Of a DNA stretch of 64,000 bases, positions 1 to 50,219 are shown piece after piece. Position numbers and translations under genes: made by a program. The notes beneath the pieces are model-generated. The model was not told where the DNA came from. It did not search any database and saw only the letters and a list, made by a program, of their open reading frames with translations. The first letter of the stretch is position 1. Each line of letters begins with the position of its first letter. Source of the stretch: a virus. Its lineage: Duplodnaviria; Heunggongvirae; Uroviricota; Caudoviricetes. The DNA lies in IMG/VR virus record IMGVR_UViG_3300028584_001242; one strand, 5' to 3'.

Positions 1-1214
1 TTGAGTTTTCACCAACAGGTGAAATAATAACAGCCAATGAGAAGTTTTTAAATTTAATGGGATACTCCCTAAATGAAATAGTAGGGAAAAAACATTCTAT
101 ATTGTGTGACAAACTATATGCAAACAGTGCTGATTACAAAAAGTTTTGGAATAAGTTAGAAGCGGGTGAATATATATCTGATATGTTTAAAAGACTTGAT
201 TCAAAACAAAAAGAAATATGGCTAGAAGCTTCTTACAATCCTATATTTGATAATAACAACAAAGTAGTAAAAGTAATAAAATTTGCAAACGATATTACTA
301 GATATGTAGAGGAAAAAAATGAAGATAAAAGTAAATTAGATGCCCTTAATTCATCTATGGCTGTTATTGAGTTTACACCTGAAGGTATTATTTTAAATGC
401 AAACAATAACTTTTTATCAACAACTGGTTATACATTAAAAGAAATAGTGGGTAAACATCATAATATATTTTGCGAAAAAGCGTATAGTCTTCATTCAGAA
501 TATAAAAGGTTTTGGCAAGATTTAAAAAATGGGCAATTTTTTAATGGTCAATTTAAAAGATTAAATAAACAAGGTAATGATATATGGCTTGAAGCAACTT
601 ATAATCCAATAAGAGACGAAAATGGAAACGTAGTTAAAATTGTTAAATTTGCAAGTGACACCACAAAATTAGTTAACCAATTAGATGCTCAAAAGAAAAG
701 TGCAGAACTTGCATTTTCAATATCAAATAATAATAAAGAAACAGCACAAATCTCAGTAACTACAATAAATGAAACAAATAATGAAATGACAAACATTATA
801 AAATCAGTCAGTGCCACAGAGATTCATTTAAAGTCATTAGAAAAACAATCTGAAAAGATTAAAATGATATTAAATGCTATATATAAGATTGCAACACAAA
901 CTAATTTGTTAGCGTTAAATGCTGCAATTGAAGCCGCCAGAGCTGGAGATGCTGGAAGAGGTTTTGCAGTAGTGGCTAAGGAAGTAAAAGAATTATCAGG
1001 CAATACAAGTGACTTAGTTAAAAGTATTTCTGAAATAATAGAGGAAATTAATAAAGAAACAGAATGTGCGGTTAAACAAATGGAAAGTGTAACTCAGAAC
1101 ACAGAAAGAAGTGTAACATTAATGATTGAAGTCGAGCAGTTAGTGACTGAAATAAGTATCGGCTCTGATAAAATATTATCAGCTATTGCCCAATTATCAA
1201 AAGAGTTAAGTTAA
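1..1214 (+). CDS. methyl-accepting chemotaxis protein with tandem PAS domains (aerotaxis-like), 5'-partial
   Basis: The reading frame is open from nt 3, upstream of the listed ATG at 57. Repeated PAS blocks ([43 protein letters not shown]) precede a C-terminal MCP signalling motif [32 protein letters not shown] terminator follows. Confidence 0.8.
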
Positions 1215-2952: not shown

Positions 2953-3087
2953 TTACTCTGCGTCTTGATGGCGATTCCGGCGACGCTTCCGAAACTCGCT
3001 ATCTTTTTTGTGATACTTCGCTTGTTCGTTGTCTTTTTTCTTGCCACCGCGAAAACGTTCTACTGCGTCACCGAAAGAGCCTTGCAT
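2953..3087 (-). CDS. small highly basic peptide, paralog 1 (44 aa, MQGSFGDAVERFRGGKKKD...RRRNRHQDAE)
   Basis: Hand-translated. AGGAGA RBS. It lies directly behind promoter-leader module A. Two paralogs are at 9019..9153 and 49687..49818. Confidence 0.5.
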   Translation of the reverse strand: MQGSFGDAVERFRGGKKKDNEQAKYHKKDSEFRKRRRNRHQDAE

Positions 3088-9018: not shown

Positions 9019-9153
9019 TTACTCGGCGTCTTGATGACGATTACGGCGTTTTTTACGAAAATCGTTATCTTTTTTGTGATATTTTGCCTGTTCAGTGTCT
9101 TTTTTCTTGCCGCCACGAAAACGTTCTACTGCGTCACCGAAAGAACCTTGCAT
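9019..9153 (-). CDS. small highly basic peptide, paralog 2 (44 aa, MQGSFGDAVERFRGGKKKDTEQAKYHKKDNDFRKKRRNRHQDAE)
   Basis: Hand-translated. AAAGGAT RBS. It sits behind the promoter-leader module at 9195..9275. Confidence 0.5.
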   Translation of the reverse strand: MQGSFGDAVERFRGGKKKDTEQAKYHKKDNDFRKKRRNRHQDAE

Positions 9154-9194
9154 GTTTTGTATCCTTTTAACTGGTTATGATAAGTAAGCATTAA

Positions 9195-9275
9195 CAAGGG
9201 TAAAGACTTACTGGGTTGCTCGCCCCTTGCCGCTTCAACATGGTTATTATATCAAAGTAAATCGTCAAAAACAAT
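9195..9275 (-). promoter_or_regulatory. repeated promoter-leader module (TGaTATAAT extended -10, leader hairpin CAAGGG...CCCTTG); copy of 39608..39690
   Basis: The -10 box is at plus 9246-9251 on the minus strand. The hairpin spans 9195-9229. The block matches 39620-39672 across about 45 nt. Confidence 0.5.
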
Positions 9276-11871: not shown

Positions 11872-11898
11872 AAACAAAAAACCGCCAAGAAGGCGGTT
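11872..11898 (-). terminator. terminator ACCGCC-UUCUU-GGCGGU plus U-run (minus strand)
   Basis: It ends the tRNA-like transcription unit. Confidence 0.55.
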
Positions 11899-11917
11899 CG
11901 TTTGTATCTTAAATTAG

Positions 11918-11990
11918 GAGGACCGACTGGGACTCGAACCCAGAATTCATCCGGTTAAGGACGCTTGTTCCCGTTAAACACCACCGGCCC
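11918..11990 (-). tRNA. tRNA-like gene with a contracted 6-nt anticodon loop (possible non-canonical tRNA or pseudo-tRNA)
   Basis: Acceptor GGGCCGG/TCGGTCC with two G-U pairs, D-arm TGTT-TAACGGG-AACA, canonical T-arm CTGGG-TTCGAGT-CCCAG. The anticodon arm folds only as CGTCC-TTAACC-GGATG. It has its own consensus promoter and terminator. Confidence 0.5.
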
Positions 11991-12036
11991 ATATATTACA
12001 TGTATCAAGATTTAGTTGCTTCGTCTTGATGTGATT

Positions 12037-12065
12037 ATTATATAGAAAACAGGCGTAGCTGTCAA
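12037..12065 (-). promoter_or_regulatory. consensus sigma70 promoter module C: TTGACA-N17-TATAAT plus leader AATCACATCAAGACGAAGC
   Basis: The -35 box is at plus 12060-12065 and the -10 box at plus 12037-12042. It drives the tRNA-like gene. Confidence 0.65.
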
Positions 12066-26815: not shown

Positions 26816-27937
26816 TTACTCGGGAATATCGACTTGTTTACGAGCAAACACCATGATAGCGGCTTGCTTGTAATCAATTTCATTGCCCGAATACTTACTG
26901 ATCAAGACATGCAGCAACAATGGAGCCACTTCTTTGGCTTTACGAGCGTAATCGCCACGTTCCAAACCTTTGTGTTCTTCATAGAAACTTTCAACGGTGC
27001 GAACAAGGTAGTGGTAGCTTTTACGGGCGTAGTCTTCTACTTCATCCAAGCGAGCCAGAATTTCAGCCAGTGGGAAGTTATCGCTGTGCGTCCGGTAATG
27101 ATACAGCGAACGAATTTCGTCCAAAATTTCGTGAAGAGTTGCTTCATAAATAACCTGACGCTCTTTCGACCGATCCTGAATATTGACCACTGCCGACATT
27201 TTCAGGTAAGGGATTGTTTTGACCTTATACATATCAGGGCCAAATTCAACTACATAACCCTCAATTTCAGGGTCATTAACGTTGAGTTCATTGATAGGGA
27301 TACGTTTCACCAAATGGGCCGCAATAACCGGGTATTTGGCAGCAAATTCAGCAGAACGAATATCGACATAAGCACCAGTGCTCATATCACGGGCTTTCAG
27401 GATATGAACAGAATAATCAGTGTATTCAATGAACACGCGGTTCTTGGGCGTGGTCAATTCCAAGTCAACCGAAACACCAGTGCGGGTCAACCGTTCAATA
27501 TCAGCATGCAACTCAGGGCTGATAGATTTTTCAACAAGGTCATAATTGGCAAAAGTTGGCTTCTTTTTGCTCTTGTAGTAAAGCGTATCGTTAACTGGCG
27601 AGATATAGCTGGTCAGCAGGGAACCATCTGGCTTCAAGTAAGCATGATCCGCTTCTTCGGGCTTGATCTTCTGAGTTTCTGGAGTTTCACCGAGCGAGAA
27701 GAATTTCTGCATTGGCAATGCCACCAGCACTGGCTCATCACCGCCCATGTAGAACATGACCCCACGGCAATCTTTAGCACCCGGAAGTTTGAATTCAGAG
27801 TGCTTTGGAATGTCATAGTTGAAGACACGGTAAGTCCCGCCGTCTACTGCTGAGGTTTCATCCCCGTATTTAAAAGACCCCGGATTAGTAACCAACAGGT
27901 TCATCAGTTGGGCATACAGTTCTTGTTGATAAGTCAT
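26816..27937 (-). CDS. RNA ligase, Rnl1 family (T4 gene 63-like), about 373 aa
   Basis: Motif I KPDGSLL. The N-terminal block YRVFNYDIP...CRGVMFYMGGDEP...QKFFSLGE is colinear with T4 Rnl1 as recalled from memory. Confidence 0.8.
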   Translation of the reverse strand: MTYQQELYAQLMNLLVTNPGSFKYGDETSAVDGGTYRVFNYDIPKHSEFKLPGAKDCRGVMFYMGGDEPVLVALPMQKFFSLGETPETQKIKPEEADHAYLKPDGSLLTSYISPVNDTLYYKSKKKPTFANYDLVEKSISPELHADIERLTRTGVSVDLELTTPKNRVFIEYTDYSVHILKARDMSTGAYVDIRSAEFAAKYPVIAAHLVKRIPINELNVNDPEIEGYVVEFGPDMYKVKTIPYLKMSAVVNIQDRSKERQVIYEATLHEILDEIRSLYHYRTHSDNFPLAEILARLDEVEDYARKSYHYLVRTVESFYEEHKGLERGDYARKAKEVAPLLLHVLISKYSGNEIDYKQAAIMVFARKQVDIPE

Positions 27938-27994
27938 GTGAATCTCCACAATTAAATTTGTCTGAATGTATTATATCAAAAACTGATTTTTAAT

Positions 27995-28906: not shown

Positions 28907-30028
28907 TTAAACGGGCGGGGACAAGTCGCCAAGCTCAATTTGTTCCAACGACCAATCCACCAGATGGTTTTTAGAGTAGTGATACAAGTAGTCGTTTTTG
29001 TGACCACGAATCGCCCCCATAACAAAACCAAAGTGTTTATGGCCTTTGAGCTGAATTGCAGCAGCTTTCACGTCAACACCTTTGAATTCAGCAGCAATAT
29101 TATCAACTTCTTTCGACAACGCTTCAATCGAAGCTTTGATAGCGTCATTGATTCGATAAATCTCACTCAAATCAGCCGTTGGCGAATTCAGCGACAAATA
29201 AGCGATGTAATCATCAAGTTTTTCTTCAACCACCAACCGAGCAATATCACGCTCCCGAACAAAGCTAACCGCATGATGGAGGTTCATATACCATTTGGTT
29301 TTGATTTTGATCATGTTACCGTTAACGAATTGAATAACATAGCCTTCAATCCCTTCAACAGTGTTCAGCGACTTCAACAGGGAAGCCAAATCAAATTCTT
29401 CACCAAACAGAGGCTTGTTAACAGGAATATCAAACAACAACGCCAGTTGGTCTTTTTCAGCAGGCATTAAGTAATCGCCTGTGATGTTGTGACGAACATG
29501 AAGCAATGTCATGTTGTCTTCGTCATAACGCAAAACGATACGATGTTTTGGCGAAGTAAATTCAAAAATAGGGGTCAGTTGGGCCTGAGAGCAATATTTA
29601 GTGAACTCGTAGTATTTCTGGTTGCGAGACACAAAGCCTTCTGCCGAAACAGCCACATCCGATTTGAACGACTTCTTGGATTTAGCAAAGAATTCGCCTT
29701 TGAACAGCCCTGTGGTAATCATGGAGCCATCCATTTTATCAAACCCGGCTACCATCGTGCTCCAATCCAAAACGGCTGGCTGGACTTCTGCCCGCTCTGC
29801 CAAGTTAAAGAATTTGTGCAATGGACGCGACAGGATTTTACCATTGTCGTCAAAAGTAATACCGCGAGCTTCTTTTTCAACCGGAGTGTTGAAAGAGTCA
29901 CCGTTGCTGATGTTGTAGCAAACGATATCGGCACCGTTATCCTGTTTATTAACAGAAATATAGGCACGGTCTTTGATATGAGGAATCATATCATCAAGGG
30001 TTTCAATACGCGGGAAGATGCTGGACAT
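28907..30028 (-). CDS. RNA ligase, Rnl1 family, second paralog, 373 aa
   Basis: Motif I KMDGSMI, block ARGITFDDNGKILSRPLHKFFNLAE. Same architecture as 26816..27937. Confidence 0.75.
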   Translation of the reverse strand: MSSIFPRIETLDDMIPHIKDRAYISVNKQDNGADIVCYNISNGDSFNTPVEKEARGITFDDNGKILSRPLHKFFNLAERAEVQPAVLDWSTMVAGFDKMDGSMITTGLFKGEFFAKSKKSFKSDVAVSAEGFVSRNQKYYEFTKYCSQAQLTPIFEFTSPKHRIVLRYDEDNMTLLHVRHNITGDYLMPAEKDQLALLFDIPVNKPLFGEEFDLASLLKSLNTVEGIEGYVIQFVNGNMIKIKTKWYMNLHHAVSFVRERDIARLVVEEKLDDYIAYLSLNSPTADLSEIYRINDAIKASIEALSKEVDNIAAEFKGVDVKAAAIQLKGHKHFGFVMGAIRGHKNDYLYHYSKNHLVDWSLEQIELGDLSPPV

Positions 30029-48268: not shown

Positions 48269-48724
48269 TTAACGTTTTTCCTTAATGATAAATCCAAAAT
48301 GTTGGTTAATCCAAGAAACATCCAGTGTCCACTGATATTTTGATCGGTCATTAAACAAGTTGAAGGCTTTTTCAATGTAGCGTTCTGTTTGTCGCATAGG
48401 GACTTTATTGATAGCCGAAAAATGAGATTTAGCATGATTGTAACGACCAGTCACCATCGCCATGCCGATATGTTTAACTTGATGACAAGAAGGACAAAGG
48501 GCAATCGTTCTAACCAGACGCTGTACCTTATTGTTATCGTCATAAGCCCAAACCTCATGGCATTCAACCGGCCATTTGTCACCAACACCCTGACAGATTT
48601 CACAACGATTACCTGCAGCTTTAAACGTGCTGAGTTTGACTTCTTTCCATTGAGCGTCTGTAAGGTGGTCCCTCAAATTAGAAAACCAGCAAGATTTAGG
48701 TACAAGTTCGATAGTTAAAATCAT
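48269..48724 (-). CDS. HNH-like zinc-finger nuclease, 151 aa
   Basis: Motifs CEICQ...ECHEVWAYDDNN...LCPSCHQVKH (CxxC / H-N / CxxCH..H). No clear SD. Confidence 0.5.
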   Translation of the reverse strand: MILTIELVPKSCWFSNLRDHLTDAQWKEVKLSTFKAAGNRCEICQGVGDKWPVECHEVWAYDDNNKVQRLVRTIALCPSCHQVKHIGMAMVTGRYNHAKSHFSAINKVPMRQTERYIEKAFNLFNDRSKYQWTLDVSWINQHFGFIIKEKR

Positions 48725-49094: not shown

Positions 49095-49406
49095 TTAAAA
49101 ACCTACCTGATCACCCATAGCCTCTTTTTTCTCGGCCATAATAATTTCAAATGTATCTTTTTGATCATCATTCAAGACTTCTTTAATTTCAGTCGTAAGA
49201 CCTTCATCGGTTGTTCTGATTTTTCTAACAATGGTGGTGTATTGTTCGGGAGTCAAGTTCAAACGAGACACATCAGAGTAAAATGAATCTTTAACCAATG
49301 TGGCTAATTGATCATTTCGTTCTTTAATAACATCAGTGGTATTAGCAATGACTGCAATAGATGTTAATGGGACTGCAAGTAAACATGCAAACATAATCTT
49401 TTTCAT
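49095..49406 (-). CDS. secreted protein with signal peptide, 103 aa
   Basis: N-terminus MKKIMFACLLAVPLTSIAVIA. AGGAGA RBS. Confidence 0.5.
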   Translation of the reverse strand: MKKIMFACLLAVPLTSIAVIANTTDVIKERNDQLATLVKDSFYSDVSRLNLTPEQYTTIVRKIRTTDEGLTTEIKEVLNDDQKDTFEIIMAEKKEAMGDQVGF

Positions 49407-49562
49407 TATCGTATTCTCCTAATATTTAGTTGTTAACAACACAATCTAGATTGCATTAGTTGCTTTAATTATAATGACATAAAGTATTAATAATTTACCA
49501 CAGTGATGTAAAAAGTCAATAAATAATGAGAATAGTTATCATTACACCACAAAAAATAGTAT

Positions 49563-49590
49563 AAAAAAACCACTCGAAAGTGGTCTTAGT
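49563..49590 (-). terminator. terminator ACCACU-UUCG-AGUGGU plus U7 (minus strand)
   Basis: It ends the unit formed by basic peptide 3 and the tRNA-like gene. Confidence 0.6.
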
Positions 49591-49597
49591 GTATAAA

Positions 49598-49670
49598 GGC
49601 TGTATGATGGGACTCGAACCCACGACTACCGTTTTTCGACGGAGTTCTGCCGACTGAACTACAAACAGCC
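49598..49670 (-). tRNA. tRNA-like gene with a contracted 6-nt anticodon loop, CCA not encoded
   Basis: D-arm GTTC-AGTCGGCA-GAAC (A14, G18/G19), T-arm GTGGG-TTCGAGT-CCCAT, 6/7-bp acceptor. The anticodon arm folds only as CCGT-CGAAAA-ACGG. It lies immediately downstream of basic-peptide gene 3. Confidence 0.45.
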
Positions 49671-49686
49671 AAAACTGTAAAATTCT

Positions 49687-49818
49687 TTATTCGTTAATGT
49701 GACGATCACGACGCTTCTTTCGCCAGTTCTTGTCTTGCTCATGAGTTTTTGCTTTTTCTGTGTCACGTTTTTTACCACCACGGAAACGTTCTGTTGCGTC
49801 ACCAAATGAACCTTGCAT
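49687..49818 (-). CDS. small highly basic peptide, paralog 3 (43 aa, MQGSFGDATERFRGGKKRDTEKAKTHEQDKNWRKKRRDRHINE)
   Basis: In-frame internal ATG of listed ORF 49687..49869. A TGTATAAT -10 box lies about 30 nt upstream. Confidence 0.5.
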   Translation of the reverse strand: MQGSFGDATERFRGGKKRDTEKAKTHEQDKNWRKKRRDRHINE

Positions 49819-49928
49819 AATATAAATACCTTTGTTTATTAGACTTTTATTATACATCAAAAAGCACATTAAGTAAATAGCAAAAATGATATTTTTTAAA
49901 AACTTTTTAATGGTCTAAAAATATCCCA

Positions 49929-50219
49929 CTATTTCATGTATTTTTCAAGCTCATGGCACATTGCCACACCTTTATCAGTCAAGTCAATAGACGGTGTAAA
50001 TTCGGTACCATCTGGCATCGGATCTTCAATGGTTTCATAGCACAGATCTTTCTTGATCAGCTTATTGAAAATACTACGACCGGGAATGATGGTGTTCATG
50101 CAATCAACATACGATTTGGCCTCAATCTTGTCGATAGAGATGGACTGTTTTTGACGCAGAATGCACATTGCGTTGTATTCAGATTCGGTCAACAGTGGGA
50201 ATTCGTATACTTGGCTCAT
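49929..50219 (-). CDS. hypothetical protein, 96 aa
   Basis: AGGTGA RBS. Confidence 0.5.
   Translation of the reverse strand: MSQVYEFPLLTESEYNAMCILRQKQSISIDKIEAKSYVDCMNTIIPGRSIFNKLIKKDLCYETIEDPMPDGTEFTPSIDLTDKGVAMCHELEKYMK

Follow-up and report, generated by a model that had tools for sequence, protein, structure and literature searches.

The viral record IMGVR_UViG_3300028584_001242 (Caudoviricetes) was analysed as one stretch of 64,000 nt, which we refer to as the window. On its minus strand, at positions 49566-49877, lies a small cassette that reads, from 5' to 3', a sigma-70-type promoter, a 43-codon open reading frame (ORF) for a basic peptide, a 16-nt spacer, a tRNA-like block and an intrinsic terminator. 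Alignment and folding show that the RNA genuinely adopts a fold of the tRNA family, in which the anticodon loop has six nucleotides, and comparison with related loci indicates that the block is under strong purifying selection, with changes that preserve the structure. An earlier note on this DNA had described the same arrangement, and every element was found where that note had placed it on the minus strand.

The promoter (TTTACT-17-TATAAT, 49849-49877, minus strand) scored 10 of 12 matches in a promoter scan, which did not count the TG before the -10 box as an extended -10 element. It is also kept in the orthologous cassettes of loci that we fetched for comparison (L015-L019, L024 and L028). 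The peptide ORF (49687-49818, minus strand) has a weak Shine-Dalgarno sequence, AAAGG, and between its stop codon and the tRNA-like block runs the fast-evolving spacer (49671-49686, minus strand). The terminator (49566-49587, minus strand) has a 9-bp stem, a UUCG loop and a T run. In the terminator scan it was the only terminator-like site in positions 49300-50000, where shuffled sequences yield 0.3, and it is homologous to a terminator that stands directly 3' of the stop codon in L019 and L024. Because one promoter and one terminator serve both, the natural reading is that the peptide ORF and the tRNA-like RNA are carried on one transcript, as the earlier note had supposed. Folding of the whole 296-nt transcript returned the local elements and nothing more (z = +0.41). 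We considered whether the anticodon loop (CGAAA) might kiss the loop of the terminator (UUUCG) and rejected this, as the terminator loop is UCAG in L015 and L017 and the RNA there is unchanged.

Fold and conservation of the tRNA-like RNA

The tRNA-like block occupies 73 nt (49598-49670, minus strand), made up of GG, a 70-nt tRNA body and C, and was delimited by ARAGORN, Rfam, folding and conservation. ARAGORN called positions 49598-49668 as tRNA-???, with a two-base anticodon (aa). The earlier note had seen good D and T arms and a six-nucleotide loop here and had proposed an Infernal search against Rfam; that search assigned the RNA to the tRNA family (RF00005) at 42.9 bits, where the curated gathering score is 29 and E, taken over the entire window, is 8.9e-6; the homolog in L028 scored 40.1 bits. 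The Infernal alignment was a full match except at two points: the anticodon arm is shorter by 3 nt, and one acceptor pair is non-canonical. For a 75-nt stretch, minimum-energy folding gave a cloverleaf (z = -2.27) whose anticodon hairpin has 4 bp and 6 nt. The molecule has a 7-bp acceptor stem, a 4-bp D stem with G18 and G19, and a 5-bp T stem with a UUCRA loop, and the bases for tertiary contacts, as read from the sequence, are complete (U8, A14, G15-C48, G18, G19, A21, G46, U54-A58 and C56). Beyond tRNA, the only Rfam family found in positions 49400-50000 at E <= 1 was a chance isrK match (17.3 bits), and ARAGORN reported no tmRNA.

Outside this intact body, the RNA departs from a tRNA at several points. 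Infernal alignment and folding agree on a short anticodon arm, CCGU-CGAAAA-ACGG (49629-49642, minus strand), whose 4 bp and 6 nt (14 nt in all) replace the standard 5 bp and 7 nt (17 nt), with neither U33 nor a triplet anticodon. The acceptor stem, in the register given by Rfam and ARAGORN, is CUGUUUG/CAUACAG, with a U-U mismatch at 5:68 and C73 as the discriminator. The mismatch, also reported in the earlier note, is present in all six variants of the RNA, but the register proposed there did not hold: the outer GG and CC fall at positions -2/-1 and 73/74. With GG before position 1 and CC after position 72, a G-1:C73 pair can form, possibly followed by G-2:C74, and these outer pairs could extend the acceptor helix to 9 bp. 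CCA is not encoded (the 3' end reads ...CAUACAG-C-C-UUU), whereas the tRNA-Met and tRNA-Leu of the window both encode it. The sequence thus passes the Rfam tRNA threshold yet fails in the features that define a decoder, and we have not filed it as a tRNA gene.

Decoding appears very unlikely, because the RNA lacks U33, has a 6-nt loop and a stem one pair short, and does not encode CCA. A working decoder with an odd loop, for example a frameshift-promoting or doublet-reading tRNA that serves phage recoding, would suit the two-base anticodon reported by ARAGORN and the occurrence of a second tRNA-like with a 6-nt loop in the same window, and the ribosome is able to tolerate doublet decoding (bioRxiv 10.1101/2024.12.14.628468). 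We nevertheless give this explanation hardly any credence. Without U33 no U-turn is possible, the short stem leaves the loop misplaced relative to the acceptor end, the phage's normal tRNAs encode the CCA that is missing here, and the loop of L018 is down to 5 nt. No frameshifted genes came to notice, though no search was aimed at them.

The same 73-nt block was found in five further sequence variants from other metagenomes, and because of this recurrence we regard the tRNA-like as more than a chance resemblance. Compared with L015-L018, a 74-nt block covering the RNA differs by 0-3 substitutions (0-4%), against divergences of 10-13% for the peptide ORF, 13% for the downstream intergenic segment and 31-37% for the spacer; synonymous divergence of the ORF is 0.27-0.47. 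The contrast extends to L028, a locus from a 1.86-Mb contig whose peptide is 72% identical: there the RNA differs at 8 of 73 positions, and 32 of 120 ORF positions are changed, among them 20 of the 40 third positions. Across the six variants, all nine variable single columns are unpaired and no stem pair is broken. With 29 of 73 columns unpaired, our own arithmetic puts the chance of this at (29/73)^9, or about 2.5e-4. The sole change within a stem, C28-G42 to U-A in the anticodon stem, is compensatory and leaves the loop as it was (CUGU-CGAAAA-ACAG in L028). The U-U mismatch, the flanking GG/CC and, except in L018, the CGAAAA loop are fixed, and the bases just outside GG/CC vary. Comparative evidence thus indicates that the unusual features are precisely those that selection preserves, and the RNA itself is probably functional. 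A single compensatory pair is not statistically significant, and therefore this case rests mainly on the contrast in rates.

The same comparisons bear on whether the RNA is a decaying tRNA pseudogene, a functionless and passive passenger on the peptide transcript. Such decay would explain an anticodon arm that is short and lacks U33, an acceptor with a U-U mismatch and a 3' end without encoded CCA, as well as the shorter loop of L018, the C at position 14 in L028 and the lack of any tRNA-like in L019 and L024. It is distinctly unlikely, however, given an RNA that is 0-4% divergent against 10-40% for flanks and synonymous sites, changes that are all structure-compatible, one of them compensatory, and CGAAAA, U-U and GG/CC elements that are invariant even in L028, at 72% peptide identity.

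The peptide family and its relation to the RNA

The ORF upstream of the RNA (copy A) encodes a 43-aa basic protein, MQGSFGDATERFRGGKKRDTEKAKTHEQDKNWRKKRRDRHINE, with a pI of 10.35 and a net charge of +6. AlphaFold2 predicted a single long helix over residues 5-39 (mean predicted local distance difference test score, pLDDT, 70.6). Among 5.8 billion proteins searched, 16 clusters were homologous, with identities of 62-93% and a length of about 43-45 aa once spurious N-terminal extensions were removed. A profile search of 1.84 billion representatives returned 24 clusters of 41-74 aa, except for one spurious 802-aa repeat protein, and gave the family pattern MQ[GS]S[FHY]...E[KR]F...R..[KR]R.NRH. 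Among 12 distinct nucleotide sequences, the median ratio of nonsynonymous to synonymous divergence (dN/dS; pairwise Nei-Gojobori) was 0.13. No significant match to the peptide was found in Pfam, PHROGs, NCBIfam or the sequences of the PDB. By these homologs and this ratio, the small peptide gene that the earlier note had called is real and under purifying selection. The peptide probably serves in nucleic-acid binding.

The window holds three members of the family, all on the minus strand and each with its own promoter, and related contigs carry up to five copies. Members are 43-44 aa long, and the multi-copy cassettes (promoter, leader, ORF and terminator) were also seen in L006 and L024-L039. 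Paralog B (9019-9153) has an extended, conserved leader, and a hairpin and then the next ORF come after it; paralog C (2953-3087) has the leader TCCCATCAAAACGAAACAACAC and the terminator AAGGCATCCGAGAGGGTGCCTTTTTT; neither is accompanied by a tRNA-like. The layout of the paralog C cassette is shared with L006, L007, L010 and L012, and the leader TCCCATCAAAACGAAACAACAC and the terminator AAGGCATCCnnnAGGGTGCCTTTT are kept across very divergent lineages of the family. The 5' leader of copy B, about 90 nt long (9154-9245, minus strand, in the window; 2415-2500 in L041), contains a core that is conserved, TTGAAGCRGCAARGRGCGAGC...GTAAG, together with a hairpin whose pairing is seemingly kept by two-sided changes (CAAGGG/CCCTTG against CAAAGA/TCTTTT); this leader may be a regulatory RNA element. 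Together, these sequences define a new and widespread family of mini-proteins (MQGSFGDAxERF...RxKRRxRH), encoded in repeated promoter-ORF-terminator cassettes on genomes assembled at 0.5-1.86 Mb.

The relation between peptide and RNA was followed across every peptide gene in the 39 fetched loci and the window, which amount to 31 distinct contexts. The tRNA-like is present in 6 of these (the window, equivalent to L001, and L015, L016, L017, L018 and L028), and all six represent one orthologous cassette with a common promoter and a common downstream gene. A further 24 contexts have neither a tRNA nor a tRNA-like, and the peptide gene runs straight into a terminator, often AAGGCATCCnnnAGGGTGCCTTTT, or into the next ORF. 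The last, a paralog in L026, carries a canonical tRNA-Arg(UCU) with encoded CCA (L026 1644-1720) that starts 9 nt past the stop codon and is followed by a terminator. The orthologous cassette also occurs without the RNA: in L019 and L024 the stop codon is followed immediately by ACTAAGCCACC-TAGAGTGGTTTTTT, homologous to the window terminator ACTAAGACCACTTTCGAGTGGTTTTTTT, so that a clean indel of 95 nt, which takes in the spacer, the tRNA-like and 7 nt, distinguishes these loci from the window. P0011, from a further lineage, was examined as a possible ortholog and proved to be a copy-B-type cassette without a tRNA-like. An HNH endonuclease gene lies two genes downstream of the tRNA-like cassette (48269-48724, minus strand; PHROG 5200, E = 2.5e-48); every syntenic relative has it, and it therefore shows no linkage to the indel.

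The earlier note had suggested that peptide and RNA may form a ribonucleoprotein (RNP), or alternatively that the RNA may act as a decoy, and had named co-conservation in related genomes as a check. Co-conservation failed, with the RNA confined to one orthologous cassette in 6 of the 31 contexts and absent from paralogs B and C and from L019 and L024; on these data the pairing is not obligate, and a functional partnership of the two is not supported. That a basic peptide and a tRNA-like RNA should work together as an RNP is not without appeal, since both come from one transcription unit and the peptide, helical by prediction and rich in Arg and Lys, with an aromatic residue adjoining the basic run, broadly resembles the arginine-rich RNA-binding peptides. 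The nearest precedent is AcrIIIA1, a small phage protein that works in complex with fragments of tRNA and tmRNA (PMC11662646); it uses host tRNAs, however, rather than a phage-encoded mimic, and the peptide and RNA described here are not co-conserved. We consider the RNP very improbable, as 25 of the 31 contexts have no tRNA-like (24 without any tRNA and one with a normal tRNA-Arg), among them two paralogs in the window itself and two orthologous cassettes. Copy A, moreover, shows no residues specific to cassettes with the tRNA-like beyond ordinary divergence, and hairpins with GAAAA loops, which could be shared binding sites, show no clear enrichment across the window. The decoy idea, taken as a property of the RNA alone, is the part of that proposal that we carry forward, as an inferred function.

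A system of the lambda N/boxB type, brought to mind by the GAAAA within the loop and the Arg-rich peptide, was rejected separately. Hairpins with GAAAA loops numbered 5 per strand against 2.1 in shuffled sequence and had no consistent position, the CGAAAA hairpin occurred only here and in one weak case, and the peptide had no match in Pfam or the PDB.

Because a tRNA or a tRNA-like recurs in the same slot, the data suggest that these cassettes, with their strong promoters, merely offer in the 3' untranslated region (UTR) a favourable site for expressing a tRNA-sized RNA. The position also fits a cis-acting role, in which the tRNA-like fold would be a processing or stability signal for RNase P, with or without a 3' exonuclease, and would set the 3' end and half-life of the peptide mRNA, in the way that mascRNA does for MALAT1, the released RNA being idle. 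The tRNA-like does lie in the 3' UTR, between stop codon and terminator; it accompanies one of the three paralogs in the window and would give that copy a different expression level; and the acceptor and T-arm helices, which RNase P needs, never vary. Yet RNase P needs no anticodon hairpin, and here that hairpin has an invariant CGAAAA loop on a stem preserved through compensation, with the D-arm stem and the variable loop likewise conserved. The presumably functional tRNA-Arg in the L026 slot also points to a place for expressing tRNAs rather than for tuning an mRNA. We therefore regard cis action as unlikely.

Genomic setting of the cassette

Small genes, most of them orphans, follow one another along the window, and each has a sigma-70-type promoter and an intrinsic terminator of its own. 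Its recognisable genes encode an RNase T-type exonuclease, an HNH endonuclease, a NUDIX protein, an SPFH protein, a PAS-domain methyl-accepting chemotaxis protein and two ligases of the T4 Rnl1 family. The chemotaxis protein gene (57-1214, plus strand) is unusual cargo for a phage and is also found in L012-L014, as a 439-aa gene.

The peptide is carried by three IMG/VR viral contigs of 64-193 kb, and metagenome contigs with the family reach 497,968 bp (Ga0308163_10000024), 677,834 bp (Ga0308157_10000028) and 1,859,102 bp. The largest, JGI Ga0308158_10000001 (1,859,102 bp), contains L028, L031, L032, L034 and L039, and an independent assembly, ENA k141_522346 (1,843,594 bp), contains L006. In these two assemblies of about 1.85 Mb, copies of the peptide family are spread over at least 275 kb. 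We read these sequences as a lineage of phages, or of elements resembling phages, with very large genomes, to which the family belongs. The record for phage genome size is 735 kb (PMC7162821), and the two assemblies, if they are true single phage-like replicons, would far exceed it; alternatively, they may represent misassembly, a concatemer or a cellular genome.

Searches beyond the fetched loci gave little. Among deposited phages in GenBank, neither a megablast of 4 kb nor a tblastn search with a 420-aa neighbour found a match, and blastn of the locus against phage records returned only short matches that were due to chance or to the T arm. Pattern scans of IMG/VR for the tRNA-like found none; a match to the body alone was an unrelated high-GC phage tRNA-Met and was discarded. 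The combined D-arm and T-arm pattern had no match in metagenome and genome collections, nor did a scan of IMG/VR with the neighbouring protein.

A second odd tRNA-like lies at 11917-11990 on the minus strand. ARAGORN reports a 6-nt loop, UUAACC, and its Rfam tRNA score is 26.4 bits, below 29. It has its own promoter (TTGACA-17-TATAAT, about 12035-12063) and terminator (about 11875-11900), scores weakly as mascRNA (RF01684; 21.3 bits) and has no homolog in the fetched loci. A relationship between the two tRNA-likes of the window was rejected, as they have no sequence similarity and the second falls below the Rfam threshold. In L041, a D-arm-like fragment, AGTAGCTCAATGGTTAGAGC, occurs at 2935-2975, upstream of a 227-aa gene and without an ARAGORN call; it may be a remnant of a tRNA.

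A candidate tRNA mimic

The explanation that we tentatively favour, at slightly less than an even chance, is that the block is a tRNA-derived, non-decoding RNA in the 3' UTR of the cassette, a tRNA mimic that acts independently of the peptide. Its anatomy and the selection on it are taken as observed, and to these we add a function that we infer. A tRNA-derived gene lies between the stop codon and the ancestral terminator and would thus be transcribed as the 3' segment of the peptide mRNA, from a strongly promoted early cassette. It would presumably be released in the way tRNAs are, RNase P acting on the 5' side and trimming enzymes on the 3' side; a real tRNA-Arg fills the same position in a paralogous cassette. 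RNase P, the 3' trimming enzymes and the CCA-adding enzyme all read the stack of acceptor and T arm, and by analogy the tRNA-like body would be recognised by each of them. Once free, an RNA that can be neither cleaved nor used in decoding would, in the mechanism that we think likeliest, compete with host tRNA for a factor that binds it, or act as its decoy, with no part in this for the peptide.

Several features suggest tRNA-His as the source. C73 and G-1 make up the bacterial His identity set, and the variable loop and T arm match E. coli tRNA-His at 22 of 23 nt. Because of the G-1:C73 end and this T arm, we propose descent from tRNA-His, which the sequence suggests together with possible recognition by histidyl-tRNA synthetase (HisRS). 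Bacterial tRNA-His differs from the RNA in other respects: the GUG anticodon is not present, the anticodon arm being unrelated and its loop CGAAAA; an extra G-2:C74 pair is possible; and the acceptor stem has the U-U mismatch.

The phage may also take part in conflicts over tRNA. Two genes for Rnl1-family RNA ligases lie about 1 kb apart on the minus strand, at 26816-27949 (Pfam RNA_lig_T4_1, 34 bits) and 28907-30028 (95 bits), and suggest a capacity for repair of tRNA or other RNA; the ORFs that were scanned included no polynucleotide kinase. A contest over tRNA is plausible because the phage carries these two ligases. Phage tRNAs are known to escape host anticodon nucleases through changes in the anticodon loop (PMC10264068). 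The present RNA resembles those nuclease-evading tRNAs, and the T4 Rnl1/Pnk repair system, in the setting of a tRNA conflict, in its altered anticodon loop and in the company of Rnl1-type ligases, but the evading tRNAs keep 7-nt loops and still decode, which the tRNA-like almost certainly cannot do.

A number of observations weigh against the proposed mimic. In L018 the anticodon loop is one A shorter (5 nt), in L028 the C at position 14 is incompatible with the universal U8-A14 contact, and the tRNA-like was either lost from L019 and L024 or never there, so that it is dispensable in some lineages. With six variants the covariation is not significant, since 86 of 500 shuffles equal the one compensatory pair. 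The E. coli search that found tRNA-His also matched tRNA-Asp over 21 nt of the T arm. The His-type reading hinges on the 5' end made by RNase P, which is uncertain given the extra G-2:C74 pair. Finally, the anticodon loop is like no known nuclease substrate.

The mimic can be placed among known systems that share parts of its anatomy. Phage tRNA genes, as in the T4 and T5 clusters, are co-transcribed with their neighbours and excised by RNase P. Like them, and like the tRNA-Arg of L026, which occupies the same slot, the tRNA-like has a cloverleaf with canonical D and T arms, scores above the Rfam threshold and lies within a larger transcript that ends in a terminator; it differs in its 14-nt anticodon arm, 6-nt loop, lack of a triplet anticodon and unencoded CCA. 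We found no description in the literature of phage tRNA genes with six-membered anticodon loops. The tyrT-tyrV-tpr/rttR operon of E. coli offers another likeness, a very small Arg-rich ORF and tRNA genes in one transcription unit. Its annotation was confirmed as tRNA genes and a 29-aa 'protamine-like' Tpr, MRSFDQGSTRAPARERCRRQRPEGRSAQR, but there the tRNAs come first and are normal, and Tpr has no similarity to the 43-aa phage peptide. The mascRNA of MALAT1 and the 3' tRNA-like structures of plant viruses, such as the histidine-accepting one of tobacco mosaic virus (TMV), are non-decoding 3' modules recognised by the enzymes that process or charge tRNA. Like the present RNA, they have the shape of a tRNA, do not decode and stand at the 3' end of a longer transcript or genome; as eukaryotic or viral-genome elements without sequence relation to it, they are functional analogues (for mascRNA, Rfam RF01684) and not relatives.

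It is possible, though on balance doubtful, that the RNA represents a new phage class of early 3'-UTR mimics, expressed from a high-copy mini-gene and defined by a His-type G-1:C73 end, an intact elbow and a shortened anticodon hairpin with a fixed CGAAAA loop, that would serve very large phages as a decoy or inhibitor of a host defence or enzyme that binds tRNA, or as a His-charged cofactor. Odd tRNA calls in phage genomes are usually dismissed as pseudogenes. Here, selection appears to keep the odd features, which hold across lineages in which half of the neighbouring third codon positions have diverged, and the RNA is thus a concrete candidate for a phage tRNA mimic.

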